From Nitrospinota bacterium (GTDB lineage Bacteria; Nitrospinota; Nitrospinia; JACRGO01), in NCBI GenBank assembly GCA_016212295.1, contig JACRGO010000042.1:1-61754 (forward strand): DNA of 61,754 nt. The letters run 5' to 3'. The notes under the pieces are model-generated. The model was not told where the DNA came from and made no database searches. It saw nothing but the letters and a program-made list of their open reading frames with translations. Each line of letters begins with the position of its first letter. Position 1 is the first letter of the stretch. Below, one piece after another: positions 1-53,820 of this stretch. The position numbers and the translations under genes are program-made.

Positions 1-10
1 GAAGAAAAAA

Positions 11-163
11 CTGAACGTCCAACATCGAACATCGAACGTCCAACATCGAAGTAAGAAAAATTCGTTTTACGTTTTAAATCCTTTCTTCCTTTTTCGACGT
101 TCGACGTTCAATGTTGGATGTTCGATGTTCAATTCTTTAAACTCCGCCCGAAGGGCGTTAATT
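11..163. repeat. word-hairpin element, family B (CGAACAT/CGAACGT/CCAACAT words) with conserved tail
   Basis: Left arm 11-50 (CTGAACGTCCAACATCGAACATCGAACGTCCAACATCGAA) is an imperfect reverse complement of right arm 94-131. It is followed by the tail CTTTAAACTCCGCCCGAAGGGCG (134-157). Bases 75-163 recur at about 90 percent identity at 53731-53820. Confidence 0.85.
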
Positions 164-166
164 TAA

Positions 167-577
167 ATGAAATTCAAAATCGAGGGGACAACCGCTGATA
201 AACGCCTGATCGCCTTTGGAGGCAGCCGCGAGGAGCTCTTCCAAAACGCCGCTATTGGAATGTATTCCGGGATGGTGGACTTAGAGGAAGTCCCGGAGAG
301 CGGGGCCAGGGAAATACAGATAGAAGACGCCGGGGACCTGGAAGGGCTCCTTGTGGGTTGGCTCAACGAGCTTCTCTATCTTTTTGACAGCGAGGGTTTC
401 GTGGGAAAGAGGTTCGACTTGAGGTTTTCGGAGAATGGGCCATTGAAGGTCCGGGCATACGGCGCCGTGGTTTCCCCGGATTTAATCTTCGGAGAAATAA
501 AGGCCGCCACCTACCATGAGATTCAAATAATGGAAAAGGACGGGGCTTTCGAGGCCAGGGTCATTTTGGATGTTTAA
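167..577 (+). CDS. archease family protein
   Basis: 136-aa ORF. The N-terminal GTTADKRLIAFGGSREELFQNAAIGMYS and C-terminal KAATYHEIQI segments match my recollection of the archease family. Confidence 0.75.
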   Translation: MKFKIEGTTADKRLIAFGGSREELFQNAAIGMYSGMVDLEEVPESGAREIQIEDAGDLEGLLVGWLNELLYLFDSEGFVGKRFDLRFSENGPLKVRAYGAVVSPDLIFGEIKAATYHEIQIMEKDGAFEARVILDV

Positions 578-1167
578 TTATAATACCTGGGGGTTTGGAC
601 GGAATGGCCGTGTAGGAGACTCCCCTTCAGCGGGAGGCTGCCCTTCCGGATGGCCTCGTTAAGTTGATCAGGGAAGGCGCGGTCGAAGTCGTTTAAATAT
701 TTCATGACTGAAATGCCCCAATATTTTTCGTCCGGGGATTGAATAATCGTAATATTCTTATTTTCGTAAAATTCCAGGACTTGTTTCACGGCCGCGTCCA
801 GGGCAGGCCCTTCAGTTTGGGACTTTATGGAAAAGGGCCTCACAGGGTCGACTTGCAGGACTTCCATCCCCTTCAGGTCTTCCGGGATCTCGCTGATTAA
901 ATCCTCGATGGGGATGCCAACGCCGCCTTCCCTTCCGAAAGGATTCATCAGTGTTGCAAGGTATAAGGAAGAATTTAAAATTCTGGCATGCTGCGCGTAT
1001 CCTTCCCGGATCACTGAAGCGTTTTTGGACGACGGCCCAACAACCACGAAATCCCAATGCCCATGAATAAGGTCATCCTGGGTCCTTAATATTTTCGTGC
1101 CGTCGATGATCTCCTGGAGCTTTTCAAATGACTTATAGTCCTTTGGCTTCAGGTGGAATCTGGACAT
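574..1167 (-). CDS. hypothetical protein
   Basis: Long ORF on the minus strand. I chose the ATG at 1167 (MSRFHLKPKDY) over the ORF-track start at 1275. No family recognised. Converges on and overlaps the archease stop by 4 nt. Confidence 0.5.
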   Translation of the reverse strand: MSRFHLKPKDYKSFEKLQEIIDGTKILRTQDDLIHGHWDFVVVGPSSKNASVIREGYAQHARILNSSLYLATLMNPFGREGGVGIPIEDLISEIPEDLKGMEVLQVDPVRPFSIKSQTEGPALDAAVKQVLEFYENKNITIIQSPDEKYWGISVMKYLNDFDRAFPDQLNEAIRKGSLPLKGSLLHGHSVQTPRYYN

Positions 1168-1262
1168 ACAACTTTTCCTCTCGAAAAAAAAAACAATATA
1201 TGCTGTTTTTTTAAAGAATAACACGCAAGGCCGGAAATTGTAAAGATTCCTGTAATGAAAAT

Positions 1263-2210
1263 ATGAAATCAACATCTGAAACTATAAAGGAAATAACAAC
1301 AGGGCCGGCGGACGCCGGGCAAAGGATAGACGTCCTGCTTTCCAGATATTTGGACGGTTGGACCCGGTCCCGAGCGGCAAAACTGATAAGCGAAGGGCTG
1401 GTCTTGATGGATGGGAAGACGGCCAGGGCCGGGAACAAGGTCAAGGCCGGTTCCAAGTTGACCGTGCGTATCCCGGAAGCCAAGCCCGCCTCCCTGGAAC
1501 CAGAAGCCATTCCTCTCAGAATCGTGTATGAAGATGACTGCGTTATCGTGGTGGATAAGCCTCCTGGCATGGTGGTCCATCCCTCAGCCGGGCATTCCAC
1601 CGGCACCCTGGTCCACGCCCTTTTGCATCATGGACGGTCGCTTTCCACCACCGGCGGACTGGAAAGGCCGGGGATAGTGCACCGCCTGGACAAGGACACC
1701 TCCGGACTCCTTATCGTGGCGAAGGACGAGCAGAGCCATTTGGCGCTTTGCAGGCAATTGAAAGAAAGGACATTGAAGCGGTCATATTACGCCGTGGTCC
1801 ACGGGACCTTCAAGGAGGACTCCGGGACCATTGAAACCGAAATAGGCAGACACCCCACGGACAGGAAGAAGATGTGGATCAATCCCAAGCGCGGAAGAAT
1901 GGCGGCCACCGGCTTCGAGGTGGTGGAACGGCATCCGGGCTTTACCCTTTGCCGGTTGAGCCTGAAGACCGGGCGGACTCATCAAATTCGTGTGCACATG
2001 GCCTGCAAGGGGCATCCGGTGGTGGGGGACAGCGTCTATGGCGGAAAGAAGAAGGAAAGGCATAAGGGAGTGGACCGGCTGCTGATCGGCCGCCAGGCCC
2101 TCCACGCTTATAAACTCGGCTTCCTCCATCCCAGGGACGGAAGATACCTGGAACTGGAATCCCCTTTGCCGGAGGACATTGTTGCGCTGCTGGAAAAGAT
2201 TCGTAATTAA
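1263..2210 (+). CDS. rluD: RluA/RluD-family 23S rRNA pseudouridine synthase
   Basis: N-terminal S4-like segment plus the catalytic motif HRLDKDTSGLLIVAK and the C-terminal TGRTHQIRVH motif. Confidence 0.85.
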   Translation: MKSTSETIKEITTGPADAGQRIDVLLSRYLDGWTRSRAAKLISEGLVLMDGKTARAGNKVKAGSKLTVRIPEAKPASLEPEAIPLRIVYEDDCVIVVDKPPGMVVHPSAGHSTGTLVHALLHHGRSLSTTGGLERPGIVHRLDKDTSGLLIVAKDEQSHLALCRQLKERTLKRSYYAVVHGTFKEDSGTIETEIGRHPTDRKKMWINPKRGRMAATGFEVVERHPGFTLCRLSLKTGRTHQIRVHMACKGHPVVGDSVYGGKKKERHKGVDRLLIGRQALHAYKLGFLHPRDGRYLELESPLPEDIVALLEKIRN

Positions 2211-3014: not shown

Positions 3015-4172
3015 ATGCCTGACAAACCGCCTATAGATATATGGGAAGTTGATAAACTCCTTCAGTTTGACCAGCCCCTTTCAGAGGATGATCCCAAATA
3101 CGTCCATACAGAAGCCGGGCGCGGAGATATCAATTTTGAAAGAATTTATAAAACTCTCTGCGTGGATTCCAAAACATTCACATTCAAGTCCATTCCTGAA
3201 AAGAAGTATATCCTGTTTTGCGGCCACAGGGGATGCGGAACTTGACCCCAATAACCTCCAGTACTCTGATATCATAGGACACGGTGGATTATTTCATCAA
3301 GCATTCCGGGGGATGTCCGAGAGAGCTTTTAAAACTCCTCCGCTATGCCTTCCTGAGAGCGGAAACAGACCAATTTGACAGGACGTCCGCTGAAAAGGCC
3401 GTCCTCGACCTAGCCTCCGATTATAAGAGAATCCTCGATTCCGAGGATTACAAAATCCTCCATGCAATAGACAAATCTCCCTCTTATGATTCTTCAGAAA
3501 AGGTCCGCAGACTCCTTTATAACCTCGCCCTCCTGGAATACAACCATTTGCTGAAAGACCTTGCCAAGGCCAATACTCTTATCCATCTCGTTAACCTGGA
3601 AAACTGGCTTTTCCCGGAAGGCTCAAAGTCCATGGTGGTGGGGTTCAACTACCAGCGGGAGTCCATAGCCAGGGAATGCCCGGCATAAAGACCTTTGCCA
3701 TTGACGCCCCGGACATGTGGGCCTGGCGCTCCGCTGTTCTGGATTTTTCCGTGGAAAAGGCCGGGATAGTCCATGAACCTGCCAGGGAATCCAGCCTGAT
3801 GGAAGGGTTGCCCTTGAAGTCCAGGATAAAACGCATCAACGAGATAAAGGAGTTTCTCGCCAATAAACCGGAAGACCTGCCCGCCTCCCTTTCCTCGTCC
3901 TTGCTTAATGAGCTTGGCCGTCTCTTTAGCAGCATAGGCAAATACGAAGTGGCCCTGAAGCACTTCAAGGAGAGTCTGAAAATCTGGAAAGAAACAGGAA
4001 ACCGCCGGGAGAGGGAGTTTCTCTTTGGAACATGGGCCGAATCTTAATGAACAAGGACAGGAAGTCGGCAATTGCTTACCTGGAAGAGGCATTGAAGATT
4101 GATAAAGAACTCAAAAATCCCGATTACGAAAAAAATAAAAAGCTCTTGGAAGAACTAACCAAAAATATTTGA
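3015..4172 (+). pseudogene. decayed STAND-like P-loop ATPase with C-terminal TPR repeats
   Basis: The reading frame breaks at least three times. Frame 1 ends inside the Walker A motif (FCGHRGCGT-stop at 3243). The sequence continues as DYFIKHSGGCPRELLKLLRYAF (3284 frame), then LNELGRLFSSIGKYEVALKHFKESLKIWKETG (3676 frame). After another shift near 4005 it reads GEGVSLWNMGRILMNKDRKSAIAYLEEALKIDKEL, ending at 4172. Confidence 0.55.
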
Positions 4173-4190: not shown

Positions 4191-4222
4191 AAATCTCCGC
4201 GTCTCTGTGTCTCCGCGGTTCA
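4191..4222. repeat. short GC-word repeat (CTCCGCGTCTC...TCTCCGCGG)
   Basis: ATCTCCGCGTCTCTGTGTCTCCGCGGTT. A related GCGTCTCCGCGGTT lies at 8680-8693. Confidence 0.5.
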
Positions 4223-7742: not shown

Positions 7743-7788
7743 CGGATTAAAGCGGATAAAATTTCAAATCGCAATTGTCAAATAACAA
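7743..7788. repeat. family A half element (mirror of 39620-39677)
   Basis: CGGATTAAAGCGGATAAAATTTCAAATCGCAATTGTCAAATAACAA is the near reverse complement of TTGTTATTTGACAATTGTGATTTGAAATTTTATCCGCGATAATCCG at about 39620-39665. Confidence 0.8.
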
Positions 7789-7841
7789 TGCGCGGCCCTT
7801 CATGAGACAACCAGGCAAGGCTGGCGCGGAAGAGCAAAAAA

Positions 7842-8504: not shown

Positions 8505-8548
8505 GAAGCCAGGTTTCAGGGGGCAGGGGGCAGAATATATATAACCCT

Positions 8549-8696
8549 GCATAGCGCGACATGCGCGGTAATGGAATTATTGGGGCATTCGGTAATTGTA
8601 ATTTGTGATTTATTTGTAATTTGTTGTTTGTCATTTGGGATTTGGGATTTGGGATTTGGGATTTTGTTTTCCTTTTGGCTGCGTCTCCGCGGTTAA
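8549..8696. repeat. composite repeat: box variant + family A arm + (TTTGGGA)x4 + GC word
   Basis: GCATAGCGCGACATGCGCGGTAATGG (8549-8574). GCATTCGGTAATTGTAATTTGTGATTTATTTGTAATTTG is the reverse complement of the left arm at 16861-16910. A 7-nt tandem repeat TTTGGGA occurs four times at 8634-8661. Confidence 0.8.
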
Positions 8697-8707: not shown

Positions 8708-11632
8708 ATGTCAACCGAAATAAAAAAATTGTGGGTCTCCATGGGACTGCATTTCGCGGCGGTGGCTAGCATCATGCTCTGCAGGACCTATGTTGATTTA
8801 TTGTTTCTGTCCACATACCCGAAGTCCTGGCTCCCTTTTTACTTCATGGGGCAGACCGTCGCGACCCTTGTTCTCACCTACATCATCACCCCGCAAATAT
8901 CAAAGGGATCACGTTTAAGAATCTTTCTGAACCTTGTCATCTGCTCCCTGACCCTTGTCGCCGCCATATTCCTAATGGACCTTGAAATAGACTATTTCCC
9001 CTTTGCCCTTTGCCTGTGGCTGGCCGCGTTTTCGGTCCTACTGGGCGTGATCTCCTGGAATTGCGTCGGGGACGCCTTTGACGCCAGGGCCTTTAAAAGG
9101 ATCATTCTATGGATTAACGTCGCCGGGAGCGTCGGCGGATTGGTGGTGGGCCTGCTCATCCCCTCCATAATTTACTGGTACAGCGCGGACATGCTCTTGT
9201 ATATATTGATCGTGCTGACCCTTGTCCAGGGATGCCTGGTATACATGCTGGAGCCTTTGCCGGCCTCCTCCAGGAAGATGAAGGGCGGGCAATCGCCGAT
9301 GAATTATACCCTGTTCAAGAGCCTGGCCGTGGGCGTGTTTCTGCTTTTTGTAGTTGACACATTCGCCGACTACGCGCTCAAGGCCGAGGTGGGCGCGGCT
9401 TACACCAAGGAAGGTATCGGCAAATTCATGGGGCCGTTTTACGGCCTTTCAAGCGTACTCATCCTGGCTGTCCAGTTTGGCGGGACCAATCATCTTATAA
9501 AATATTTCGGGATCGCGGGGCTTCTGGCGGTTTTGCCCGGGTTCTGTCTTCTCGTTAATCTGGGTATGATAGCGTATCCCGGCCTTTGGGTCGCCGCCGC
9601 CTTCCGCATGGGGGAGATGGTGTTCCGCTACAGCGTGGACAACATAGGCCGCGAGCTTGCCGCCAATCCGTTGCCAAGCCCCATACGAAAGGCCGGAAAG
9701 CTTTTCCTCAAGGGAGTGGTCACGCCCATCGGCTCCGGGGCCGGAGCGGTGGTCCTGTGGCTTCTGGCCGAAACTTTCGGGCTTCGCGGCATAGCCTTCG
9801 CCACGGTGGCGGTTTCAGGGTTCTGGATGCTTGCTAACAGGCAGACCAGGAACGCATATCAGTCCACCCTGGAAGAAACGGTAAAGCAGAAGCGCTTTAT
9901 CGCTGACATGGATGGAGATGATCCGGCTAGCCGGGAGGCGTCAATGGGCGTCGCTTTACAGGCCCTTGGGGAAAAGGACCCGGACTCCATACGCTTCGGG
10001 TTGGCCTTGCTTGAGGACATTAAATTTGACAAAATACCCCAACCGGCCTTGGAGCACCTGAATTCCGAACACCCGGACATAAGGGCCTCGGTGCTGAAAT
10101 TGGCGATGAGGGTACAGGACACTGGCATTGTCCCAAGGCTTGTGAAACAGCTTGAGGCGGAGCGGGAGCCGGAGGTCGTCTGGCGGCTGCTGGACGCCTT
10201 GGCAGCCATTGACCCCGCCTCAGCCTCGCCCTTCGCGGAAAAATTATTGAAAAGCCAGGACGCCGAGATCAGGGCCAGCGCGATCCTGGTCCTGATGCTG
10301 GCCGGGAGCCTTAGCCTGCTGGCGGAAGCCGTCAATTCCTTGAAGGACATGGTTTTCAGCTCTGATCCCTTGATGCGCAAGGGGGCCGCCCGCGCCATGG
10401 GCGCTTTAAAAGGGGGCAAACTCGGACAGGAACTGCGGTTATTGATTCACGACCCTAGCGAGGACGTGTGCATAACCACCATCAGGTCCGCTTCCCAGCG
10501 CCAATCACTGTGCCTGATTGAGGACATAGCCTCCAAATTGGGGCGGGGAAGGACGTCGCACTACGCGAGCCGGGCCCTGGCGGAATTGGGAGTGGCCACG
10601 GTCCCGCACCTTCTGAAGGCAGCGCGCCAGGGAAAGGAAAGGACCATTCGCGCCGCTATAAAGACGATGGCCATGATCCCCGGGGAAGAAGTGGAAGACG
10701 CCCTGGCGGAGGTCGCCTGCTCTGAAATGCCGCTTACCAGGAACATCGTGGCCAAGGAGTCGGCCTTGCGCGCCGGCCGCATGCCGGTTTCCAAGGCGTT
10801 CAGGAAAAAGGCCATTGGCTTCGTGGAAGAAGAGGCCGGCGCGATCAGGATATTGAAATCCGGAAGGACCTTGGATTCACTTTCGGGCTTCGTGAAGTCC
10901 GAGCTGTCGTGCCGCCTGGGACTGGCCCAGACCAGGCTGCTTCATTGGTTCGCGGTCTGCACGCGGCCTGCCGAGGTGATGGGGGTGATGCCCCTGGTCC
11001 TTTCCGGCGAAAGGTCCAAGGACACGGCCGCGCGTCGCGGCGCCGCAATGGAATTGCTTGACACTCTTGCGTCCGACAAGAGGTTGAAGAATTCCATATT
11101 GGAGTTTGAAAAGGAGGCCCGCGCCAATGGGAACGCGGAAAAACTCATGGAGGAACTTAAAAATCTGAATGACCCGTGGCTCAGGAGGGTCCTTTCAGAC
11201 GAATTTCATGAATATAAAGGAGTCCCGATGAATATAGCCCAAAAGGTAATGGCGTTTAAAAAGGTCAAATTATTTGAAAGTCTGCCAGGCGAAATATTAA
11301 TGACCATCGCCGAGGAAAGCGAAACCCGGGAAATGATAAAGGGCGCTAAAATAGTGTCAACCGGCGAGGCCTCTGACGGCCTGTATATAATCGCTTCAGG
11401 GACCGTGCGCATTGAAATAAACGGCCAGCCGGTAAGGACCTTGGGGGAGAGCGATTTTTTCGGCGAGGTTGGGCTTTTGGATGATTCAGCCCGGGCCGCT
11501 GACGCAGTGGCCAACGAGGATGGGCTGCTATTTTTCATAGGAAAGGAAACCTTCGGCGCGATCACGGAAGACCTGCCGGAAGTCATGCGCGCCGTGGTCA
11601 AGACCATCATCGGTTATCTCAAGAAAAAGTAA
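8708..11632 (+). CDS. polytopic transporter-like (TLC/MFS-like) membrane domain - HEAT repeats - cyclic-nucleotide-binding domain protein
   Basis: About 420 aa of TM helices, including an RKAGKLFLKGVVTPIGSGAGA segment. The middle section has HEAT-like repeats (DPDSIRFGLALL, HPDIRASVLKLA, DAEIRASAILVL, DPLMRKGAARAMG). The C-terminal cNMP-binding fold reads FFGEVGLLDDSARAADAVA. I chose the ATG at 8708; the ORF-track start at 8621 lies inside a repeat. Confidence 0.7.
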   Translation: MSTEIKKLWVSMGLHFAAVASIMLCRTYVDLLFLSTYPKSWLPFYFMGQTVATLVLTYIITPQISKGSRLRIFLNLVICSLTLVAAIFLMDLEIDYFPFALCLWLAAFSVLLGVISWNCVGDAFDARAFKRIILWINVAGSVGGLVVGLLIPSIIYWYSADMLLYILIVLTLVQGCLVYMLEPLPASSRKMKGGQSPMNYTLFKSLAVGVFLLFVVDTFADYALKAEVGAAYTKEGIGKFMGPFYGLSSVLILAVQFGGTNHLIKYFGIAGLLAVLPGFCLLVNLGMIAYPGLWVAAAFRMGEMVFRYSVDNIGRELAANPLPSPIRKAGKLFLKGVVTPIGSGAGAVVLWLLAETFGLRGIAFATVAVSGFWMLANRQTRNAYQSTLEETVKQKRFIADMDGDDPASREASMGVALQALGEKDPDSIRFGLALLEDIKFDKIPQPALEHLNSEHPDIRASVLKLAMRVQDTGIVPRLVKQLEAEREPEVVWRLLDALAAIDPASASPFAEKLLKSQDAEIRASAILVLMLAGSLSLLAEAVNSLKDMVFSSDPLMRKGAARAMGALKGGKLGQELRLLIHDPSEDVCITTIRSASQRQSLCLIEDIASKLGRGRTSHYASRALAELGVATVPHLLKAARQGKERTIRAAIKTMAMIPGEEVEDALAEVACSEMPLTRNIVAKESALRAGRMPVSKAFRKKAIGFVEEEAGAIRILKSGRTLDSLSGFVKSELSCRLGLAQTRLLHWFAVCTRPAEVMGVMPLVLSGERSKDTAARRGAAMELLDTLASDKRLKNSILEFEKEARANGNAEKLMEELKNLNDPWLRRVLSDEFHEYKGVPMNIAQKVMAFKKVKLFESLPGEILMTIAEESETREMIKGAKIVSTGEASDGLYIIASGTVRIEINGQPVRTLGESDFFGEVGLLDDSARAADAVANEDGLLFFIGKETFGAITEDLPEVMRAVVKTIIGYLKKK

Positions 11633-13128: not shown

Positions 13129-13146
13129 GCGCTTATCCGCCTGCTC

Positions 13147-13172
13147 ATAGCGCGGCATGGCCGCAATCAAAA
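13147..13172 (+). repeat. GCGGC-box (REP-like)
   Basis: ATAGCGCGGCATGGCCGCAATCAAAA. Confidence 0.85.
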
Positions 13173-16775: not shown

Positions 16776-16835
16776 AATGAAATATCCTAACCCGAATAAA
16801 CCGGAAAAGAAAAGGAATGGAACGCGGATGACGCG

Positions 16836-17000
16836 GCGCGGCATGGCCGCAACCAAAATGAAAACAAAATCCCAAATGACAAATAGCAAATAAATTACAA
16901 TTACCGAATGCAAAAAACAATTCCTTTTCATTGTTTTTCCTTGTAATTTTGGTTATTGAGATTTATTTGTTATTTGACAATTGTTATTTGGAGTTTCATA
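16836..17000. repeat. GCGGC-box + family A word-hairpin element (full copy)
   Basis: GCGCGGCATGGCCGCAACCAAAATG, then an AT-rich left arm, the loop CCGAATGCAAAAAACAATTCC, and the right module TTGGTTATTGAGATTTATTTGTTATTTGACAATTGTTATTTGGAGTTTCAT. Confidence 0.9.
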
Positions 17001-19557: not shown

Positions 19558-19718
19558 AAAATTTTTCCTGCCTTCCTAAGAGAATACTCTAATAAGGAAT
19601 GCAGGAAACCAGGAGCCAGGAGCCAGAATATGCAAAAATTCGTAATTATTCAGGGTCTCATGCGCACTGAATAACTGCAAAAATTTTTCATTTATTCTGG
19701 CTACTGACTCCTGGGTTC
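19558..19718. repeat. word-hairpin element, family D (CCAGGAGCC words)
   Basis: Left arm GGAAACCAGGAGCCAGGAGCCAGAATA (19604-19630) versus right arm TATTCTGGCTACTGACTCCTGGGTTC (19693-19718). The leader AAATTTTTCCTGCCTTCCTAAGAGAA recurs at about 41240. A degenerate GCGGC-box lies at 19501-19526. Confidence 0.8.
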
Positions 19719-20557: not shown

Positions 20558-20576
20558 GGGTTGGCGAGCTTTTTTT

Positions 20577-31222: not shown

Positions 31223-31263
31223 GCGCGGCTTCGCCGCAACCAAAATAAATTTTCCGTGCATCA
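31223..31263 (+). repeat. extended GCGGC-box variant
   Basis: GCGCGGCTTCGCCGCAACCAAAATAAATTTTCCGTGCATCA. Confidence 0.8.
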
Positions 31264-34599: not shown

Positions 34600-37163
34600 A
34601 CACCGGCACCAAGCGCCGCATCGACACCGCCCGCGACATCCTGGTGGGGAAGGTCCCCGACCCCAAGTCCCAGGTCGAACAGATCACCATCGCCCTCATC
34701 TATAAGTTCATGGACGACATGGACGCCGAGAGCGAGGAGATGGGCGGCAAGCGCAAATTCTTCGCCAAGGAATTCGCCCGCTACGGCTGGGCCAAGCTCA
34801 TGCGCTCCGGCCTGGGCGGCCATGAAACCCTCAACCTCTACGCCGAGGCCATCGCCCGGATGCCGGAGAACCCCGGCATTCCGCCTCTCTTCCGCGACAT
34901 CTTCAAGAACGCCTATCTCCCTTACCGCGACCCGGAGACCCTGCGCGCCTTCCTTAAGATCATTGACGAGTTTACCTACGACCATAGCGAACGCCTGGGC
35001 GACGCCTTCGAGTATCTGCTCTCCGTCCTTGGCTCCCAGGGCGACGCAGGACAATTCCGCACCCCGCGCCACATCATCGATTTTATCGTGGAGGCCATCG
35101 ACCCGAAAAAGAACGAGTCCGTGCTGGACCCCGCCTGCGGCACCGCAGGGTTCCTGATCTCGGCGTACAAACACATCCTGAAGAACAATTCGGAAGAATT
35201 ACGAATGACAAATGACAAATTACGAATTGAAAACAATGGTTCCCCACCATCCGTAATTCGTAATTCTCAATTCGTAACTAATCTCACGCCCGACGACAAG
35301 GGACGTCTGGCAAAAAACTTCAAGGGTTACGACATCTCTCCCGACATGGTGCGCCTCTCCCTGGTGAACCTGTACCTACACGGCTTTACCGACCCGCACA
35401 TTTACGAATACGACACCCTCACTTCGCAGGAGAAATGGAACGAGTGCGCGGACGTGGTCCTGGCCAACCCGCCCTTTATGTCGCCGAAGGGCGGCATCAA
35501 GCCCCACAATCGTTTTTCCGTGCAGTCGAAGCGGAGCGAGGTCCTCTTCGTGGACTACATGGCCGAGCACCTGACGCCAAAGGGCAGGGCCGGGATCATT
35601 GTCCCGGAGGGGATTATCTTCACGAACCATACCGCCTACAAGCAACTGCGCAAGATGCTAATGGAGAATTCCCTCGTGGCCGTGGTCTCGCTCCCGGCTG
35701 GGGTGTTTAATCCCTATTCTCCAGTAAAGACCTCGATCCTGATTCTGGACAAGGTTCTTGCCAAACGAAGTGACTCCATCGCCTTCTTCAAGGTGGAAAA
35801 CGACGGCTTCGGCCTCGGCGCCCAACGCCGCCCCATCGAGAAGAACGACCTCCCCGCCGCTACCAATTTTCTCAAATCCTGGTTCCAGTCCCTTCGATCC
35901 ACCGCGTCCACTCTGTCCACTTTGTCCATACCCAACGGCCTCATTGTGGAAAAGGCAAAAATAGCGGCGAATGGGGAATATAACCTGAGCGGGGAGAGAT
36001 ATAGGGAGAATGGGGTTCTTGATCATGTCTTTCCACTGGTCAGGATAGGAGATGTATGCACTATCAACCCGCGTAAAAGCCAGTTGACCGATGTGGCGAC
36101 GGATACTCGCATTTCGTTTGTGCCCATGACCGATCTGAACGAACACTGCATGGCATTCAAACCCAGAGAAGAGAAACGACTTTCTGAGGTAGGGGCAAGC
36201 TACACTTACTTTGAGGACAATGATGTTCTTCTCGCTAAGGTGACCCCATGTTTTGAGAACGGAAAAGCTGGCATAGCACGTGGTCTTCTCAACGGAATTG
36301 GATTCGGTTCCAGCGAGTTTTATGTCTTACGGCCGAACGATCTGGTTTTGCCTGAGTGGATCTACTTCTGCGTGATGCACCCATCGTTCAGAGATGCCGC
36401 CGTCGCCCAAATGACCGGCACCGGTGGATTACAACGTGTTCCTAAAAGTTATGTGGAAGGATTTCAAATCCCCCTCCCCCCTCTGGAGGTGCAAAAGGAA
36501 ATCGTTTCAGAGATCGAGGGCTACCAGAAGGTCATCGACGGCGCCCGCGCCGTCCTCGACAACTACCGCCCCCACATCCCCATCCATCTTGAATGGCCGA
36601 TGGTGGAGTTGGGCGAGGTGTGCTTTTTATTTGGCGGTGGAACACCTTCGAAGCAAAGAAAGGAATATTGGAGTGGTGGAAAAATAAAATGGATATCTTC
36701 TAAACACATTAATGAAGAAGGTAAAATTACTGGTTATGAAACAATAACCAAGGAAGCTGTGAATTCTTCTTCTACCAAAGTTATTCCAAAAGGTTCGACA
36801 GTTGCGATTACAAGGGTGTCCGTCGGTAAAATTGCGTTTGCCGATGATGATTATGCAATTAATCAAGACTTAACTGGGCTTACTTCAAAAAACACAGCCC
36901 AATTGAATGAAAGTTTTTTATTTTACTCAACAAGACGATTGGGTGCGGTAATTGACAAAAATGCTCAAGGAATAGGGGTAAGAGGAGTCACAAGAGATTT
37001 TCTTTCCAAATTGAAAATCCCCCTCCCGCCCCTCGCCACGCAGAAAGCCATCGTCGCCGAGATCGAAGCAGAGCAGGCGATAGTTTCGGCCAACCGCGAA
37101 CTCATCTCCCGCTTCGAGAAAAAAATTCAAACCACTCTCGCCAGAGTATGGGAGGAGTCATGA
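34593..37163 (+). CDS. fused type I N6-adenine DNA methyltransferase (HsdM) and specificity subunit (HsdS, two TRDs)
   Basis: Motif I LDPACGTAGFL and motif IV VLANPPFMSPKGG. These are followed by two target-recognition domains separated by HsdS conserved repeats (IPLPPLEVQKEIVSEIEGYQKVID and IPLPPLATQKAIVAEIEAEQAIVS). The ATG overlaps the preceding stop. Confidence 0.85.
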   Translation: MLDTGTKRRIDTARDILVGKVPDPKSQVEQITIALIYKFMDDMDAESEEMGGKRKFFAKEFARYGWAKLMRSGLGGHETLNLYAEAIARMPENPGIPPLFRDIFKNAYLPYRDPETLRAFLKIIDEFTYDHSERLGDAFEYLLSVLGSQGDAGQFRTPRHIIDFIVEAIDPKKNESVLDPACGTAGFLISAYKHILKNNSEELRMTNDKLRIENNGSPPSVIRNSQFVTNLTPDDKGRLAKNFKGYDISPDMVRLSLVNLYLHGFTDPHIYEYDTLTSQEKWNECADVVLANPPFMSPKGGIKPHNRFSVQSKRSEVLFVDYMAEHLTPKGRAGIIVPEGIIFTNHTAYKQLRKMLMENSLVAVVSLPAGVFNPYSPVKTSILILDKVLAKRSDSIAFFKVENDGFGLGAQRRPIEKNDLPAATNFLKSWFQSLRSTASTLSTLSIPNGLIVEKAKIAANGEYNLSGERYRENGVLDHVFPLVRIGDVCTINPRKSQLTDVATDTRISFVPMTDLNEHCMAFKPREEKRLSEVGASYTYFEDNDVLLAKVTPCFENGKAGIARGLLNGIGFGSSEFYVLRPNDLVLPEWIYFCVMHPSFRDAAVAQMTGTGGLQRVPKSYVEGFQIPLPPLEVQKEIVSEIEGYQKVIDGARAVLDNYRPHIPIHLEWPMVELGEVCFLFGGGTPSKQRKEYWSGGKIKWISSKHINEEGKITGYETITKEAVNSSSTKVIPKGSTVAITRVSVGKIAFADDDYAINQDLTGLTSKNTAQLNESFLFYSTRRLGAVIDKNAQGIGVRGVTRDFLSKLKIPLPPLATQKAIVAEIEAEQAIVSANRELISRFEKKIQTTLARVWEES
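35196..35278. repeat. in-CDS word-hairpin (ATTACGAAT/GACAAAT words) inside hsdM
   Basis: GAATTACGAATGACAAATGACAAATTACGAATTG (35196-35229) versus CCGTAATTCGTAATTCTCAATTCGTAAC (35251-35278). Core stem AATTACGAATT / AATTCGTAATT. It encodes ELRMTNDKLRIENNGSPPSVIRNSQFVTN between MTase motifs I and IV. Confidence 0.8.
35896..35929. repeat. in-CDS GTCCAC-word half element
   Basis: GATCCACCGCGTCCACTCTGTCCACTTTGTCCAT encodes STASTLSTLS at the HsdM/HsdS junction. A related half copy lies at 34549-34575. Confidence 0.6.
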
Positions 37164-39457: not shown

Positions 39458-39590
39458 GGGTGAATGCTGTATGGAAAAAGCCATAGAACTTGAAAATCAC
39501 GGGAGGCCATGCGGCGGATATAACCAGACTGCTTCAGCGACTCGTGGGAAAAAACGCCTTGACCCAGGAAGGCCAAGGCTAAAATGTTAC

Positions 39591-39677
39591 GATTTTGTAA
39601 TTTTGGTATTGAAATTTATTTGTTATTTGACAATTGTGATTTGAAATTTTATCCGCGATAATCCGCGTTATCCGCGT
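39591..39677. repeat. family A right module + (ATCCGCG) words
   Basis: GATTTTGTAATTTTGGTATTGAAATTTATTTGTTATTTGACAATTGTGATTTGAAATTTTATCCGCGATAATCCGCGTTATCCGCG. Confidence 0.85.
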
Positions 39678-39685
39678 TCTATTTT

Positions 39686-42954: not shown

Positions 42955-43067
42955 CACCGCAAAGACGCAAAGGCCGCAAAGTTTTAATTTTTTGAAGAAG
43001 AATGCCGCCATCAGGGCTTTTTTATAATTTGCTGATTTTCCTTTGCGTTCTTTGCGTCTTTGCGGTG
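42955..43067. repeat. word-hairpin element, family C (CAAAGACGCAAAG words)
   Basis: CACCGCAAAGACGCAAAGGCCGCAAAG (42955-42981) versus CCTTTGCGTTCTTTGCGTCTTTGCGGTG (43040-43067). Confidence 0.85.
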
Positions 43068-45637: not shown

Positions 45638-45676
45638 GCATCGAAAATTTATTTGGTTGCGGCAACGTCGCGCTAT
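45638..45676 (-). repeat. extended GCGGC-box (reverse orientation)
   Basis: GCATCGAAAATTTATTTGGTTGCGGCAACGTCGCGCTAT. The terminal CTAT plus G forms the ATG of the DUF2062 gene. Confidence 0.85.
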
Positions 45677-46127
45677 GTATCGATATTTCAGCAGAATAAA
45701 AGAACACTTCCTGCAGATTCTTATTTTAGATGGTTCACCTCACAAGGCTTCCCTGGCCTTTGCGATTGGGGTGTTCATCGCCTTTGCTCCTCACTTAGGC
45801 CTGCATACGGTCTCGGCCGTTGCCCTTTCCTGGCTTTTAAGGCTGAATCTTCCAATCATGCTGATAGGGGCGTTTTTAAATAATCCCTGGACCATTATTC
45901 CACTGTATGGATTTTGCCTGTGCGTGGGTAACTATATGCTTGGGAATGGATTCATTTGCCTTCCCGCCGGGCTTTCCGGGGACGAGCTGCTTGATTTCCT
46001 GAAAACCACCCCCCTTCCATTCGTGGCCGGGACATTAACGACTGGATCCCTGGCCTCGGTTATGAGCTATTTCATCTCGAAAAGGGTCCTGGCCCTGGTG
46101 CATCCGGCAACAGACAAAAGAACATAG
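45675..46127 (+). CDS. DUF2062 domain membrane protein
   Basis: GSPHKASLAFAIGVFIAFAPHLGLHTVSAVALSWLLRLNLPIMLIGAFLNNPWT. Confidence 0.65.
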   Translation: MYRYFSRIKEHFLQILILDGSPHKASLAFAIGVFIAFAPHLGLHTVSAVALSWLLRLNLPIMLIGAFLNNPWTIIPLYGFCLCVGNYMLGNGFICLPAGLSGDELLDFLKTTPLPFVAGTLTTGSLASVMSYFISKRVLALVHPATDKRT

Positions 46128-46129
46128 CT

Positions 46130-46287
46130 TAGCGCGGCATGGCCGCAACCAAAAACAAGAAATAACCACAAAGGACACAAATTTGAACGCTTTGTGGTAA
46201 AAAATACTCTAGCCAGAATTACAAATGACAAACAAGGAAATGGAATTGTTTTGGGCATCCGGTAATTGTAATTTGTAATTTGAACGC
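46130..46287. repeat. GCGGC-box + small family C-like hairpin + family A hairpin
   Basis: TAGCGCGGCATGGCCGCAACCAAAAAC. ACCACAAAG...CTTTGTGGT (46164-46199). GAATTACAAATGACAAACAAGG versus CCGGTAATTGTAATTTGTAATT. Confidence 0.85.
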
Positions 46288-46322
46288 CGTCTTAATTTTT
46301 TTAGGAGGTTTTTGGTCCCGCT

Positions 46323-47594
46323 TTGGACGAGTCTATAATTATTCGATTAATATTTCTCGGGGCCCTGCTTGCCCTTTCCGCCTTTTTCTCCGGCTGCGAG
46401 GCGGCCTTTTTTTCTCTTAGCAGGCTGAAGGTCGACAACCTTGAATCCCAAAAGGGCCGAAGGGGGAAAATGGTCGCCGCCCTCCTCGCCAACCCCAGGC
46501 TGCTCCTGACCGTTATTTACGCCGGCAATGAGATGGTCAACGTCGCGGCGGCAGCGGTTGTCACCTCTGTTTCCATCCATTTCCTTGGCGACTCCGGCGT
46601 CGGCTTCGCCATAGGCATCGGGACTTTGCTGATCCTGGTCTTTGGGGAAATCACCCCTAAAACGCTTGTATTGAGACACGCCGAGAGCTTCGCCCTGGGC
46701 GCCGCCCCCTTTCTCAATATTTTCTCCCTTCTCATTAAGCCAGTGAACCAATTATTGGCCCGCATCGCCGATCTTTCCGTGCACATCTTTTTACCTATAC
46801 ATAGAAAAAAGGGAGAGCTTACCGAGGGAGAAATCAAAACCATCGTCACGGTCGGGGAAGGGGAAGGGGTCATCGAAGCCGACGAAAAGGACCTTATCCA
46901 CAACATCTTTGAATTTGGAGACACCACCGTCTCGGAAATAATGACCCCGAAGAACGATGTTTTTTCCCTTGACGCCAACACCTCGGTCCCGGATATCATC
47001 TCACGCGCGAAGAAAACCTTTTTCTCCAGAATTCCGGTTTACGAGGACAATAAGGAAAATATCATCGGCGTCCTTTATATGAAGGACATCCTGAGGCTGC
47101 ATATTTCCGGCAAAAAAGATCTGTCTCTTCGCCAGATGCTGCATCCGGCCTTCATCATTCCCGAATCAAAGAAGGTGCGGGACCTGTTGAGGGACTTTAA
47201 AATCAAGAAGGTCCACCTTGCCGTGGTCTACGACGAATACGGCGGCCTGGAGGGAATCGCTACCCTTGAGGACGTCCTTGAGGAAATAGTAGGGGAGATT
47301 GAAGGGGAGCGGCGAAGGGACGATGTGCCTGTCATCAAGATGAATGAGAATGAATATGCCGTCCTTGGCAATGTGCCGATTCAGGACTTCAACGAGGAAT
47401 TCGGCTCTTCCCTGCCGGACGAGGAATACAACAGCATAGGAGGATTTGTTTTCAGCCTGCTTGGAAGGCTCCCCATCAAGGGAGAATCTGTTTCCCATGA
47501 AAACATGCGGTTTATAGTGGACAAGGTGAAGGGACCCAGGATTTTAAGGCTATTGCTGAAGGTGAATATTAAACCGGAAGAAAAGGCAGCATAG
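46323..47594 (+). CDS. CNNM/TlyC-family protein (DUF21-CBS pair-CorC_HlyC)
   Basis: FFSGCEAAFFSLSR and GEITPKT (DUF21), a CBS pair, and the C-terminal GGFVFSLLGRLP (CorC_HlyC). TTG start. Confidence 0.8.
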   Translation: MDESIIIRLIFLGALLALSAFFSGCEAAFFSLSRLKVDNLESQKGRRGKMVAALLANPRLLLTVIYAGNEMVNVAAAAVVTSVSIHFLGDSGVGFAIGIGTLLILVFGEITPKTLVLRHAESFALGAAPFLNIFSLLIKPVNQLLARIADLSVHIFLPIHRKKGELTEGEIKTIVTVGEGEGVIEADEKDLIHNIFEFGDTTVSEIMTPKNDVFSLDANTSVPDIISRAKKTFFSRIPVYEDNKENIIGVLYMKDILRLHISGKKDLSLRQMLHPAFIIPESKKVRDLLRDFKIKKVHLAVVYDEYGGLEGIATLEDVLEEIVGEIEGERRRDDVPVIKMNENEYAVLGNVPIQDFNEEFGSSLPDEEYNSIGGFVFSLLGRLPIKGESVSHENMRFIVDKVKGPRILRLLLKVNIKPEEKAA

Positions 47595-47780
47595 CGCGAC
47601 GCGGCCGCAATCAAAAGGAAATGGGAAACAAAATTACAAATGACAAATATCAAATTACAAATAAATTCCAAATTACAATTACCGAATGTCCAAAACAATT
47701 CCATTTCCTTGTTTGTCATTTGTAAATTTGGTTATTGAGATTTATTTGTGATTTGGCAATTGTGATTTGGATTTTCATAA
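47591..47780. repeat. GCGGC-box + family A word-hairpin element (full copy)
   Basis: ATAGCGCGACGCGGCCGCAATCAAAAGG; the gene's TAG stop at 47592-47594 lies inside the box. Nested inverted words follow: GGAAATGG/CCATTTCC and ACAAATGACAAA/TTTGTCATTTGT. The right module ends in TTTCAT. Confidence 0.9.
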
Positions 47781-49286: not shown

Positions 49287-49493
49287 AACCACGAATGGAC
49301 ACTAATGAACACTAATTATTTTTAGTAGTTTTATAAAATTCGTGTTAATTCGTGGTTCAGGTTGCCTTTTTTTCAAACAGCTAAAATGTTACAAAATTTC
49401 AAATATTTTAGGATAGTTCTTAGTGTTTCTTGGCGGCTTTGTGTCTTAGTGGCAAAAAAAATGGTAAACACAAAACCACGAAGAAACACGAAT
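49287..49493. repeat. two word-hairpins, family E (ACCACGAAT / ACACTAAT / GTGTTTCTT words)
   Basis: AACCACGAATGGACACTAATGAACACTAATT (49287-49317) versus AATTCGTGTTAATTCGTGGTT (49337-49357). CTTAGTGTTTCTTGGCGGCTTTGTGTCTTAGTGG (49419-49452) versus AAACACAAAACCACGAAGAAACACGAAT (49467-49493). A related GAACCACGAATGACCACGAATT lies at about 27283-27304. Confidence 0.8.
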
Positions 49494-50810: not shown

Positions 50811-50830
50811 AGGGTCTCCACGGATTGCCG

Positions 50831-50959
50831 CAGCGCTGCTTCGACGCAACCAAAATGAGAGCAAAATTTCAAATCCCAAATAGCAAATTACAAATAAGTT
50901 CCAAACTACAATTGCATAGAGCGGCATGGCCGCAACCAAAATAAATTTCGATGCATTCA
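50831..50959. repeat. two GCGGC-boxes flanking a family A arm
   Basis: CAGCGCTGCTTCGACGCAACCAAAATG, then an AT-rich arm, then CATAGAGCGGCATGGCCGCAACCAAAATAAATTTCGATGCATTCA. Confidence 0.85.
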
Positions 50960-51950: not shown

Positions 51951-52054
51951 CTTAAATTCCCCTCTGGAGAGGGGTGGCCGAAGGCCGGGGTGTGTCTTTT
52001 CTCGTTCCCAGGGTTGTCATGAAAAACCGGAGAAAACCTCATTATCTATTTTTT

Positions 52055-52157
52055 ACATCCCCCTTGGTCCCCCATTGCTAAGGGGGAATTAAAACAGGGC
52101 CTATTTTTGGGGTTTTTCCCGTATTCCCCATTAGCAAAGGGGGACCAAGGGGGATGT
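52055..52157. repeat. word-hairpin element, family G (CCCCCTTGGTCCCCC words)
   Basis: ACATCCCCCTTGGTCCCCCATTGCTAAGGGGG (52055-52086) versus TCCCCATTAGCAAAGGGGGACCAAGGGGGATGT (52125-52157). Confidence 0.85.
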
Positions 52158-52297
52158 TGTTTCACCTGCAATTGAGCATGAAGCTGTTTTCCATGATATC
52201 CCGTGAACAGTTACCTTTTATCTTTTCTTCGCGACCTTTGCGGCTTTGCGCGAGAAAAAGAGTTTAACCTACAAGAAACATCAACAAGGAACTTTTA

Positions 52298-53449
52298 TTG
52301 AACAACCTTAAAATCCTCATGGTCGCCGGGGAGGCGTCAGGCGACAGGCATGGCGCGGACCTGATTCAAAATCTTTCCAGGACCTTTCCGGGTCTCAAGG
52401 TGGCCGGGATCGGCGGCGATAGAATGGCGGGACGGGGCGCGGAGATATTTTTTCATATCCGCGACACCGCGGTGGTGGGCCTGGTAGAAATTCTTGGAAG
52501 CGTCGGCTTCTTTTATGGCCTATACAAAAGGATGCTCCGGGAGATTGACGCCGGGGGATACGACGCGGTTGTACTCATCGACTACCCCACGCTCAATCTC
52601 CGCCTCGCGGCCAGGGCTAAAAAACGGGGAGTCCCGGTCTTTTATTACATCTCCCCCCAAGTGTGGGCCTGGCACGGGAGCCGGGTGAAAAAGCTTGCCC
52701 AAACCGTTACCAAAATGCTGGTGATCCTCCCCTTCGAGGAAAAGATTTACAGGGACGCGGGTCTTCCCTGCGCCTTTGTGGGCCATCCCTTCCTGGACAT
52801 AGTGAAGCCGGATGTTTCCAGGGAAAAATTCTGTGAAAAACATGGACTCGATCCCGCTCGGAAAATCGTGGGACTCCTCCCCGGCAGCCGGAATAACGAG
52901 ATCAACTCCCTGCTCTCCGTGATCCTTCAGTCCGCTGTGATAATCAAAAAAGAAATCCCCGGAATTCAATTCGTCCTCCCGCTGGCGCCCACCATCTCAA
53001 GGGACCGCGTGGCCCCTTTCCTGAAATCCGCCCCGGTCCAGGCCGACTTGGTGGAGGGGGAGACCTTTGACGCCATGAACGCCGCCGACGCTCTTATCAT
53101 CGCCTCAGGCTCCGCCACCCTGGAGGCGGGACTCATCGGGACCCCGATGGTAATAGTATACAAGGTGAGCCCGCTCACCTACTTTCTGGGGAAGAGGCTG
53201 GTGAAGGTCCAGTACATAGGACTAGTCAACATAGTGGCCGGGAAGGCGGTTGCGCCTGAACTCATCCAGCACGAGGCGAACCCTGAACGCACCGCGGACC
53301 TGACCCTTGAATACCTGCGGGACGAGGAGAAAAATTTCCGGACCAGGGAGGAGTTGAAGAGGCTCAGGGAATCCCTTGGCGAGAGCGGCGCTTCAAGACG
53401 CGCGGCCGGGGAGATAGCGGAGAGGCTTAAGAAGAGGAAAGGAAATTGA
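52298..53449 (+). CDS. lpxB: lipid-A-disaccharide synthase
   Basis: ILMVAGEASGDRHGADLI N-terminus, YYISPQVWAWHGSR, and ASGSATLEAGLIGTPMVIVYK. Confidence 0.9.
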   Translation: MNNLKILMVAGEASGDRHGADLIQNLSRTFPGLKVAGIGGDRMAGRGAEIFFHIRDTAVVGLVEILGSVGFFYGLYKRMLREIDAGGYDAVVLIDYPTLNLRLAARAKKRGVPVFYYISPQVWAWHGSRVKKLAQTVTKMLVILPFEEKIYRDAGLPCAFVGHPFLDIVKPDVSREKFCEKHGLDPARKIVGLLPGSRNNEINSLLSVILQSAVIIKKEIPGIQFVLPLAPTISRDRVAPFLKSAPVQADLVEGETFDAMNAADALIIASGSATLEAGLIGTPMVIVYKVSPLTYFLGKRLVKVQYIGLVNIVAGKAVAPELIQHEANPERTADLTLEYLRDEEKNFRTREELKRLRESLGESGASRRAAGEIAERLKKRKGN

Positions 53450-53730
53450 AAATTTGAAATTGTAAATTGAGGACCTTGCCGGCTCCATAATCCCGCAAGG
53501 GCGAAAGAGCAATTCCGCCAATTTAAACTGCAAGAGTGATTTTTGCGGTTTTTTCTTTTGTCGTTTTAATGGGATAAAGGTATAATAAGTTTCCTGCCAA
53601 TAAAGAAGAAACAAAATGAAGGCATTGATAGTTGACTTAAAAGACAAAACGAACGACGTGCTTTATAAGAAGCGGCGGGAGAAGGATTTAAAGAACCACC
53701 CTTTTTTCGGAATGTTGGAAGCGGACAAGG

Positions 53731-53820
53731 TAAATCCTTTCTTCCTTTTTCGACGTTCGATGTTCAGCGTTGGATGTTCGATGTTCAATTCTTTAAAGCC
53801 CGCCCGAAGGGCGTTAAATT
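53731..53820. repeat. family B half element with conserved tail
   Basis: TAAATCCTTTCTTCCTTTTTCGACGTTCGATGTTCAGCGTTGGATGTTCGATGTTCAATTCTTTAAAGCCCGCCCGAAGGGCGTTAAATT is about 90 percent identical to 75-163. Confidence 0.9.

Follow-up and report, generated by a model that had tools for sequence, protein, structure and literature searches.

Insertion sequences (IS) of the IS91 family do not duplicate their target: IS91, IS801 and IS1294 carry subterminal palindromes at both ends, use GTTC, CTTG or CTCG tetranucleotides, and pass through a single-stranded circular intermediate (PMC13181058). A GC-rich stem-loop is conserved at their left end, and miniature derivatives of IS801 are themselves mobile (PMC3189936). 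Another class of DNA, the intergenic heptamer repeats, forms inverted stem-loop pairs, varies in length between relatives, and has a patchy distribution that suggests horizontal spread, no vehicle being known (PMC4692102, PMC4679880). Here we describe a stretch of DNA in which features of both are found: contig JACRGO010000042.1 of a Nitrospinota bacterium (assembly GCA_016212295.1), all 61,754 nucleotides of which we call the window. Its intergenic regions hold several families of hairpins, lettered A to G, whose arms are mostly built of short tandem words; two of these families, B and F, end in the same tail, T1. A preceding sequence-only reading took this constant tail, joined to freely varying arms, as a sign of selection on, or a generating mechanism for, the hairpin shape itself. 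The explanation we prefer, with a probability of roughly 0.6, is that T1 is a terIS-type end of the IS91 family and that the word hairpins are a distinct class of exchangeable modules.

The hairpins and the three tails lie where they had been reported and are far beyond chance: the T1 pattern matches 3 times in the window against 0.02 expected, and single-stranded DNA folds of the window hairpins reach z scores of -2.9 to -8.7 against dinucleotide shuffles. The tail, CTTTAAANNCCGCCCGAAGGGCG, stands at 135-157 and 53791-53813 (0 mismatches each) and at 27443-27465 (1 mismatch), always on the + strand. With their ends, the three copies are:

133-164, + strand: T1 copy 1, terIS-type end (assigned by resemblance, see below) TTCTTTAAACTCCGCCCGAAGGGCG followed by TTAA and TTTA (nhmmer E 2.6e-10)
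27441-27473, + strand: T1 copy 2, CTCTTTAAAGTCCGCCCGAAGGACG followed by CTTT and GTTC (pattern and profile search)
53789-53821, + strand: T1 copy 3, TTCTTTAAAGCCCGCCCGAAGGGCG followed by TTAA and ATTC (nhmmer E 6.4e-12)

The predicted organisation of T1 is a GC-rich stem of 5 bp, closed by a GAA loop and separated by 4 nt from the cleavage tetranucleotide GTTC. Copy 1 stops 3 nt short of the archease start codon at 167, and the GTTC of copy 2 shares bases with the stop codon of cbiD, which reads TGAAC on the - strand. The single T1 variant (GGACG) is better paired on the strand opposite to that on which the tail had first been written. A profile search of the window returned no fourth T1: families A, C, D, E and G lack even a degenerate copy next to them. 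There are thus three tails, but the two on family B are not independent, because 75-164 and 53731-53820 form one 90-nt repeat, 93% identical and kept on its T1 side, of which the second copy has the right arm only.

Nor is the tail limited to these three copies, a possibility raised together with the sequence-only reading. T1 recurs by exact pattern in metagenome-assembled genomes (MAGs) labelled Thermodesulfobacteriota, Spirochaetota (3 contigs) and Ignavibacteriales, labels that may contain binning errors, and in 22 metagenome contigs; the scans demanded an exact stem-loop, so that only copies with an intact stem sequence were counted. About 17 of the metagenome matches stand directly after a transposase gene or its small open reading frame (ORF). 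Similarity between copies ends exactly past ...GGGCG-NTAA-GTTC and several contigs break near T1; the T1-bearing unit therefore behaves as a repeated mobile element. Several matches are no more than about 100 nt away from the end of their contig, and flanks vary between copies.

Whole elements of about 1.53 kb are present in four contigs (L008, L018, L022 and L028). They start with (CTTG/CTCG)-NNN-GTATAGGAATTTCC, end with T1 + NTAA + GTTC, and encode a transposase that matches Pfam Y2_Tnp (PF04986, E 2.4e-31) and the NCBIfam equivalog NF033538, 'IS91 family transposase' (241.8 bits, cut-off 125). The ori-side tetranucleotide, CTTG or CTCG, stands 3 nt from a GTATAGG motif in three of the four full-length copies; L007 and L012 use on that side the GTTC of a preceding T1. 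Every full-length copy also contains an ORF for an 80-aa Cys-rich protein (...YRCRDCGREAEVEDIVVDSFP...HRMPELQCFCGGDLCYVEDL) at about 1304-1545 of the element, which overlaps the transposase 3' end, stops inside T1, and has no Pfam or NCBIfam match. A nucleotide search of the full-length IS against plasmids gave no match. The closest annotated protein is a transposase of a Piscirickettsia plasmid, 42% identical, with GCC-GAA-GGC+TATT+GTTC located 3' of its gene. For comparison, the ends of ISSbo1/IS91 were placed in a Shigella plasmid from megablast coverage limits across thousands of plasmids:

ISSbo1/IS91, transposase-sense strand: left TGAAC-CACG-[GCAGCC TGGC GGCTGC], right ...CAATTTCCTATAC-GT-GAAC
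T1 family, strand antisense to the transposase: left TGAAC-TTAA-[CGCCC TTC GGGCG], right ...GGAAATTCCTATAC-AAT-CAAG

On the left, TGAAC+TTAA+CGCCCTTCGGGCG corresponds to TGAAC+CACG and a GC stem-loop in ISSbo1/IS91; on the right, ...AATTCCTATAC+AAT+CAAG corresponds to ...AATTTCCTATAC+GT+GAAC. Because both ends match the ISSbo1/IS91 architecture, we infer from this resemblance that T1 is of terIS type and the GTATAGG motif of oriIS type; an assignment of T1 as oriIS was dropped after the same comparison. Relative to the ends, the transposase gene is inverted compared with ISSbo1/IS91. As judged from its sequence, T1 is the stem-loop at one end of a rolling-circle insertion sequence of the IS91 family, and not the constant part of a hairpin generator as had been proposed.

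Among the window genes there is no transposase, RAYT or integrase (a scan for tRNA and tmRNA was also empty), and the T1 copies of the window are therefore non-autonomous. Family F is a complete miniature of about 168 bp (~27306-27473), since its hairpin is bracketed by T1 and, about 60 nt to its left, by the 21-mer AGTATAGGAATTTCCATTTTT (27308-27328) of the ori-type end. The features of the T1-bearing families are:

27306-27348, + strand: oriIS-type end (by resemblance) of element F, ATA-GTATAGGAATTTCCATTTTT...AAATCAAATAG, with TTAA before it (exact 21-mer match)
27371-27442, + strand: family F hairpin, TAGTCAT/TGGTCAA words, arms 27374-27394 and 27422-27442 (z -2.9, period 14/7)
27280-27303, + strand: family E half arm, AACCACGAATGACCACGAAT words, adjoining the ori-type end of element F
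1-133, + strand: family B hairpin copy 1, CGAACAT heptamers, arms 13-55 and 81-123 (fold -25.9 kcal/mol, z -3.6, period 7)
53731-53788, + strand: family B hairpin copy 2, part of loop and right arm only, identical in the near-identical relative L037

The ori-type motif of element F also opens full-length copies and miniatures in other phyla, and its reverse complement, AATTCCTATAC, matches the right end of ISSbo1/IS91. Its flanks (left ...CACGAATTAA, right AGCGATTTGG) show no direct repeat, and its two ends are unlike each other. The B copies are T1-side parts of a second miniature type: copy 1 is truncated on the left by the window start, the far end of its element lying outside the window, and copy 2 has neither a left arm nor an ori-type end. 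An origin of copy 2 by one-ended transposition, considered on account of the GGACAAG before it, was rejected, the tetranucleotide being on the wrong strand relative to full-length copies. A small antitoxin-like ORF (53616-53855, MKALIVDLKDKTNDVLYKKRREKDLKNHPFFGMLEADK...) reads straight into B copy 2 and T1, as it does in L037; the element may have taken the place of the original C-terminus of this ORF.

Non-autonomous miniatures of about 70-200 bp occur in several phyla, some with a fold-back module. A B-like hairpin (CGAATAT words) lies between the same two ends in L001 and L024, the B-like T1 case being a Thermodesulfobacteriota MAG; a G-like hairpin accompanies T1 in L005, an Ignavibacteriales MAG; and a weak GATAAGG stem forms the interior of a miniature in a Spirochaetota MAG. 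The expectation that the tail would be joined to many arm families is borne out: across four or more phyla it adjoins four or more hairpin types that are unrelated to one another, though in the window it joins two of at least seven. A hairpin is not obligatory for a T1 element, because there are miniatures without one (L015, L016) or with a weak one only (L002, L003, L006).

Comparison with relatives supports the claim that tail and arms are separable and that decay of a single miniature inverted-repeat transposable element (MITE) does not suffice to explain them. L029, a 13.6-kb contig of a relative whose CbiD is 75% identical, has a word hairpin or array in most of its intergenic regions, with the same C words, B words, and new GCATGAC and CACAGAG words. 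Window positions 28-122 match L029 6103-6250 on the minus strand (88% over 95 nt, E 3e-31) whereas T1 matches on the plus strand; the B module is therefore flipped relative to T1. At the cbiD site, T1 and its junction, GCGCTTT|GTTCAGCG, are shared between the window and L030, whose CbiD is 90% identical and whose gene order is the same. The spacer GCGCTTT is unusual, other T1 copies having NTAA, and this shared odd junction argues for one ancestral insertion at the cbiD stop whose interior was later replaced: the arm beside T1 is F-type in the window and G-type in L030. The G arm and T1 of L030 are 93% identical over 55 nt to the L005 element, and identity is 84% between the G hairpin of the window and the hairpin that adjoins T1 in L005. 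Near the cbiD stop, at a distance of 13 nt, an independent insertion occurs in L029; L031 lacks an insertion.

Other orthologous sites also vary. Upstream of lipA, the window carries a C hairpin and a second repeated unit, T2 (described below), L033 (94% identical) an A-type arm, and L034 and L035 another family. Upstream of lpxB, the G hairpin is kept in L037 and L039 (~100% and 93% identity) and absent from L036 (86%), where the stop codon of lpxB carries a new AGTGACG hairpin. The comparison of orthologous loci suggested by the sequence-only reading thus established that hairpin identity varies at the cbiD, lipA and lpxB sites, but it yielded no precise empty site. At the lpxB start, L036 also has an ori-end-like motif, CTATAGGAATTCCCATTG (52-71), which contains the ribosome-binding site AGGAA; the motif could be left over from an element end or match by chance.

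The remaining families of the window are listed here; the hairpins of C, D, E and G were all recovered, like B and F, by a repeat finder, with arms of 20-44 nt that are 73-94% complementary:

42955-43067, no strand assigned: family C hairpin copy 1, CAAAGACGCAAAG words, arms 42955-42981 and 43041-43067, 93% complementary (z -6.1, without T1)
20575-20648, no strand assigned: family C hairpin copy 2, arms 20575-20602 and 20621-20648 (z -4.4; T2 unit next to it, 20661-20685)
52229-52253, no strand assigned: family C half copy, CTTTGCGGCTTTGCG, kept in L037 and L039
19605-19718, no strand assigned: family D hairpin, CCAGGAG heptamers, arms 19605-19630 and 19693-19718, with a nested inner hairpin (z -8.7, period 7)
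49287-49357, no strand assigned: family E hairpin 1, ACCACGAAT / ACACTAAT words, arms 49287-49306 and 49338-49357 (z -4.3, period about 10)
49420-49492, no strand assigned: family E hairpin 2, arms 49420-49444 and 49468-49492 (z -3.4)
52055-52157, no strand assigned: family G hairpin, ACATCCCCCTTGGTCCCCC..., arms 52055-52089 and 52123-52157, 94% complementary (fold -40.4 kcal/mol, z -8.5, without T1)
16867-16989, 47631-47775, 57007-57151 and 58041-58192: family A, full copies
7759-7799, 8580-8643, 39586-39649, 46216-46313 and 50864-50904: family A, halves

Exact 10-mer inverted-repeat seeds number 77 in the window, against a shuffle mean of 17.7 and a shuffle maximum of 31. There are 31 intergenic gaps that measure 55 nt or more; read by eye, about 17 of them carry a word hairpin or half arm, and word hairpins fill about half of the intergenic regions in this lineage. 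Arms are mostly 7-nt tandem arrays, and array lengths range from 27 to 410 nt. The arms of B, D and F (period 7 or 14), C (8-9), E (10) and also A (7) fit the description as tandem words; those of G, which consists of nested palindromes and has no tandem period, do not. Family A, with CAAATGA-type heptamer arms and a conserved centre of about 60 nt, is a dispersed repeat found in both orientations. The words of C copy 1 also make a hairpin in L029 (2325-2510). The same contig holds arrays of about 330 and 410 nt (3644-3920 and 10463-10880; TTGAACATCGAAGAT... and CGAACAT/TGAACAT), the longer one paired with a partner arm of only about 45 nt; such strongly lopsided arrays count against an obligatory hairpin role. 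The hairpins are not ordinary MITEs, the outcome that had been named as fatal to the sequence-only reading: the flanks of families B to G are free of duplications, and their arms are internal tandem words. A classical MITE was likewise rejected as a candidate, the arms not being ends of any known IS.

Across phyla and phage-like contigs, the arms do not vary freely, as had been supposed; they fall into discrete families whose sequence and order of variant words are kept. The B module occurs in IMG/VR contigs of 44-64% GC with its word order intact (CGAACATCGAACGTCCAACATCGAAG; TGAACAT CGAACAT CGAACGT CCAACAT CGAA). A full B hairpin is found in L150, L156, L171, L174 and L192, and more often there is a single array just upstream of a gene start. 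C-type, G-like, GGCTGAA and CACAGAG words, which are also known from the window or its relatives, lie beside B arrays in these contigs, as do ACTAATA and AACGAGC words. The arm families are therefore discrete, conserved and shared by horizontal transfer, which speaks against a fresh origin of every hairpin. A scan of viral contigs for T1 gave 0 matches; G words gave 106 there, 0 of them with an inverted partner, which fits chance or coding occurrences. In L147, L150, L152, L160, L168, L170, L175, L176 and L189, a purine-rich stretch and an ATG precede the B-word array (GGGATGAACATCGAACATCGAACGTCCAACATCGAAT...), which read as an ORF gives MNIEHRTSNIE...; such an ATG-led array could be a leader peptide, a translational signal or a coincidence.

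Some copies fold better on one strand. In the four full copies of family A, the CAAAT strand folds better by 7-10 kcal/mol, and in their alignment 8 one-sided changes retain a G-U pair on that strand against 1 C-A break, a bias that is suggestive (sign test roughly p = 0.02, the copies being related). In the two co-directional cases, the stable strand of family A has the same sense as the adjacent genes. For B-type hairpins, wherever they could be oriented, the better fold belongs to the antisense strand of the flanking genes, which fits single-stranded DNA better than mRNA. The idea of selection on hairpin shape is therefore only partly upheld: the wobble excess in family A and some B copies hints at selection for the folding of one strand, while miniatures without any hairpin exist.

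In the mechanism that we propose, a Y2 transposase encoded elsewhere would act in trans on the miniatures and move them in single-stranded form, with no duplication of the target, T1 serving as the putative termination and cleavage signal. Many arm types would be found on T1 since miniatures carry one module between two ends. The hairpin would probably act in the single-stranded state, by juxtaposing the ends or as a subterminal palindrome, or may simply be a passenger. Heptamer arrays would lengthen and shorten by slippage, and modules could be replaced by recombination through the conserved ends, or by tandem insertion at the terminal GTTC followed by deletion; tandem insertion beside a terminal GTTC is seen in L007 and L012.

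Several observations weigh against this explanation. T1 accompanies only B and F, two of at least seven families in the window; A, C, D, E and G have neither T1 nor an ori-type end nearby, and IS91 mobilisation therefore cannot explain most of the hairpins. The B arrays of the IMG/VR contigs are never found with T1. Neither the window nor the roughly 50 kb sampled from relatives, whose contigs often end inside repeats, encodes an IS91-family transposase, and no precise empty site was recovered among the relatives' loci. At the ori-type end, element F and other miniatures adjoin TTAA, TTAC or CTAG and not CTTG or GTTC. On a model of one-ended transposition, an end that is always retained, as T1 is, would be expected to be the ori end. 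Finally, the Spirochaetota miniatures fold no better than shuffles.

A stronger form of the proposal, in which the hairpins are a cross-phylum 'vocabulary' of exchangeable fold-back cargo between miniature IS91-family ends, is in our view improbable as it stands. If true, it would account for the horizontal spread of intergenic heptamer repeats, with rolling-circle HUH transposases as the vehicle that has been missing. In a still bolder version, staggered cleavage and rejoining by the transposase at GAAC-containing heptamers such as CGAACAT may make and resize the arrays, the module at a fixed site being swapped via conserved ends. A local origin, to which we give about as little credence as to the vocabulary, would have heptamers born by slippage, an inverted copy made by template switching, and the fold selected in RNA, as an RNase III site, transcript stabiliser, terminator or translation control; T1 adjacency would be incidental, and IS91 elements might prefer to land there. 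The dominance of period 7 and the one-sided L029 array (410 nt against a partner of about 45 nt) favour such an origin, as do the presence of hairpins in every type of gene context, the G-U pairs kept 8 to 1 in family A together with its stable sense strand in two co-directional cases, the B words just upstream of gene starts in phage-like contigs, and the intergenic heptamer repeats and convergent pairs known in other bacteria (PMC4692102, PMC4679880). It is however at odds with the same word order CGAACATCGAACGTCCAACATCGAAG in unrelated genomes of 44-64% GC, with the antisense folding of B-type hairpins, and with the 93% identity of the G arm and T1 between the Ignavibacteriales MAG and a relative of the window organism, which is unexpected if hairpins were born independently.

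An alternative that we regard as quite unlikely is that the hairpins are REPIN- or MITE-like and are moved by a Y1 enzyme of RAYT or IS200-IS605 type, with T2 as the repetitive extragenic palindrome (REP) and the T1 elements as a minor, unrelated passenger. T2 is a REP-like unit of about 45 nt, TGAATRCRTCGAAATTTATTTTGGTTGCGGCCATGCCGCGCTATG, whose similarity ends sharply after CTATG:

13146-13170, 16832-16856, 31219-31243, 46128-46152, 47590-47614, 50829-50861, 50915-50939 and 57152-57176: T2, its reverse complement on the + strand
20661-20685, 30034-30058 and 45653-45677, + strand: T2
25008-25047 and 59772-59796: T2, degenerate

With at least 11 copies in the window, often beside A or C, T2 does have the REP layout (ATAG + a GCGGC-NNN-GCCGC hairpin); the absence of target duplications at hairpin flanks, read by eye, is typical of single-strand transposons, and the turnover of hairpin identity at orthologous sites fits as well. 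Yet the window lacks a Y1 or RAYT gene, T2 adjoins the A hairpins and the C hairpin at 20575 on either side or stands alone, it was not found in the fetched loci of relatives, and the hairpin arms lack a conserved unit of tetranucleotide plus palindrome, REPINs being two inverted REPs and not arrays of 7-mers. Membership of the hairpins in the REP/REPIN class was rejected on the same grounds, with tandem 7-mer arms and no Y1_Tnp/RAYT ORF in the window; T2 alone is REP-like. Between co-directional genes, T2 has nearly always one orientation, and in its stem variants GTCGC and GTTGC, G-T pairs are preserved on one strand alone, the antisense strand of those genes. A sigma-54 promoter was also considered for T2, but the GG-N10-GC spacing fails in some copies, and the variation fits a small hairpin. 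Very little is left of the possibility that T1 is a host signal, an intrinsic terminator or small structured RNA kept by function, which the data largely refute. The copy at 145-157 fits a simple terminator pattern and T1 does lie at gene boundaries, 3 nt before the archease start and on the cbiD stop; the copy at 27453-27465, however, fails the same pattern, T1 orientation is inconsistent relative to neighbouring genes, and Rfam gives no match (Rfam 15 at gathering score over the whole window; by E-value, only a chance miRNA match at T1 loci). Moreover, T1 ends 1.5-kb transposase-bearing elements, similarity stopping right after GTTC, and its sequence is identical across phyla, unlike that of terminators. 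Integron attC sites were rejected too: GTTAAGT-like strings follow some T1 copies without a RYYYAAC partner, and the genes between hairpins are housekeeping operons.

The gene content of the window is that of an ordinary chromosome (flagellar, cobalamin, lipid A, lipoate, restriction-modification and toxin-antitoxin genes), and distant homologues of its proteins that bear Nitrospinota names are about 50% identical, as expected of a poorly sampled lineage that may lie close to this phylum. One word hairpin, at 35195-35277 (TTACGAATGACAAATGACAAATTACGAAT...), lies in frame within the type I methylase gene hsdM (34593-37163) and encodes ELRMTNDKLRIENNGSPPSVIRNSQFVT just past the AdoMet-binding motif, resembling the in-frame palindromic elements of Rickettsia. 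Tandem word runs without an obvious inverted partner occur at 8513-8536, 39650-39680, 4193-4219 and 57262-57285 (CAGGGGG x2, ATCCGCG x3, TCTCCGCG-type, reverse of D words) and are possibly decayed half hairpins. Three tandem 33-nt repeats at 60877-60975, the later ones 97% and 82% identical to the first, are coding (ORF 60758-61066) and unrelated to the hairpins. A further hairpin family, with GTAACTACTCAGGTGTTTAGGCTGAAGGCTGAAG arms, was seen in L034 (3560-3810) and L035 (9860-9995), and also in L033 (1525-1550) and L029 (~11270). Upstream of lipA in L034 and L035, its loop encloses a decayed PF05635 gene (remnants MRDHTKLRAFEL and FPKDEMYGLTSQMRRSAVSVPS), PF05635 being the four-helix-bundle or 23S rRNA intervening-sequence protein; fold-back arms can therefore flank a gene. 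The PF05635 gene of the window (33883-34599) has no such arms. Word hairpins as arms of PF05635 elements hold for this one family in L034 and L035, and no remnant was seen in any hairpin loop of the window.

These results turn one tail on many hairpins into a testable structure, a previously undescribed IS91 subgroup with miniatures in several phyla, and link the patchy heptamer repeats to HUH single-strand transposons, which depend on hairpins in single-stranded DNA. In practice, the elements break short-read assemblies, as seen in the contigs of relatives, which end within them. Some lie directly on the start or stop codon of a housekeeping gene, and one is in frame in hsdM, so that they may affect expression and annotation in a poorly sampled lineage.

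A search of the literature, including by sequence, found no description of an IS91 subgroup with an inverted transposase gene or of its two-ended miniatures in several phyla, nor of fold-back modules between IS91 ends or their replacement at a fixed site. IS91 elements, miniature IS801 fragments and intergenic heptamer repeats are already known, and the constant tail has an ordinary explanation. With the IS91 family (IS91, IS801, IS1294, ISSbo1, ISCR), the T1 elements share a Y2 HUH transposase in their full-length relatives, GAAC followed by 4 nt and a GC-rich stem-loop, another end of the form ...TTCCTATAC + 2-3 nt + target tetranucleotide, the lack of terminal inverted repeats and target duplications, and short non-autonomous derivatives such as the miniature IS801 of P. 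syringae. They differ in the inverted transposase, the 80-aa Cys-rich ORF and the occurrence in several non-proteobacterial phyla. Unlike miniature IS801, they are not simple truncated fragments: both ends are kept around a fold-back module, and TTAA-like tetranucleotides adjoin them. Non-autonomous Helitrons, which are also rolling-circle elements, are defined by a short GC hairpin that precedes a fixed terminal tetranucleotide by about 10 nt, and unrelated interiors share only the ends; they depend, however, on RepHel and not on a Y2 transposase, have eukaryotic hosts, and do not generally have a tandem-word fold-back interior. Known heptamer repeats (GGGAATC convergent pairs in Xanthomonas, cyanobacterial STRR, TAACTGA in Beggiatoaceae and cyanobacteria) are likewise intergenic 7-nt tandems with several unit families per genome, and the period-7 arrays of A, B, D, F and L029/L036 are STRR-like, whereas C, E and G deviate. 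The arrays described here differ in that they nearly always form a hairpin, that some lie inside a transposon-derived element, and that word families are many (among them CGAACAT, CAAATGA, CCAGGAG, GCATGAC and CACAGAG). REPIN/RAYT systems have in common with our hairpins a non-autonomous, intergenic hairpin of about 100-150 nt, the absence of target duplication and a single-strand fold, but each of their two arms is a copy of a single REP that bears a GTAG-type motif, and a cognate RAYT gene goes with them, in place of many tandem 7-mer families. The Foldback (FB) elements of Drosophila have long inverted arms of tandem short repeats, in variable number around a variable centre; being eukaryotic, much larger and moved by another transposition system, they offer an analogy only.

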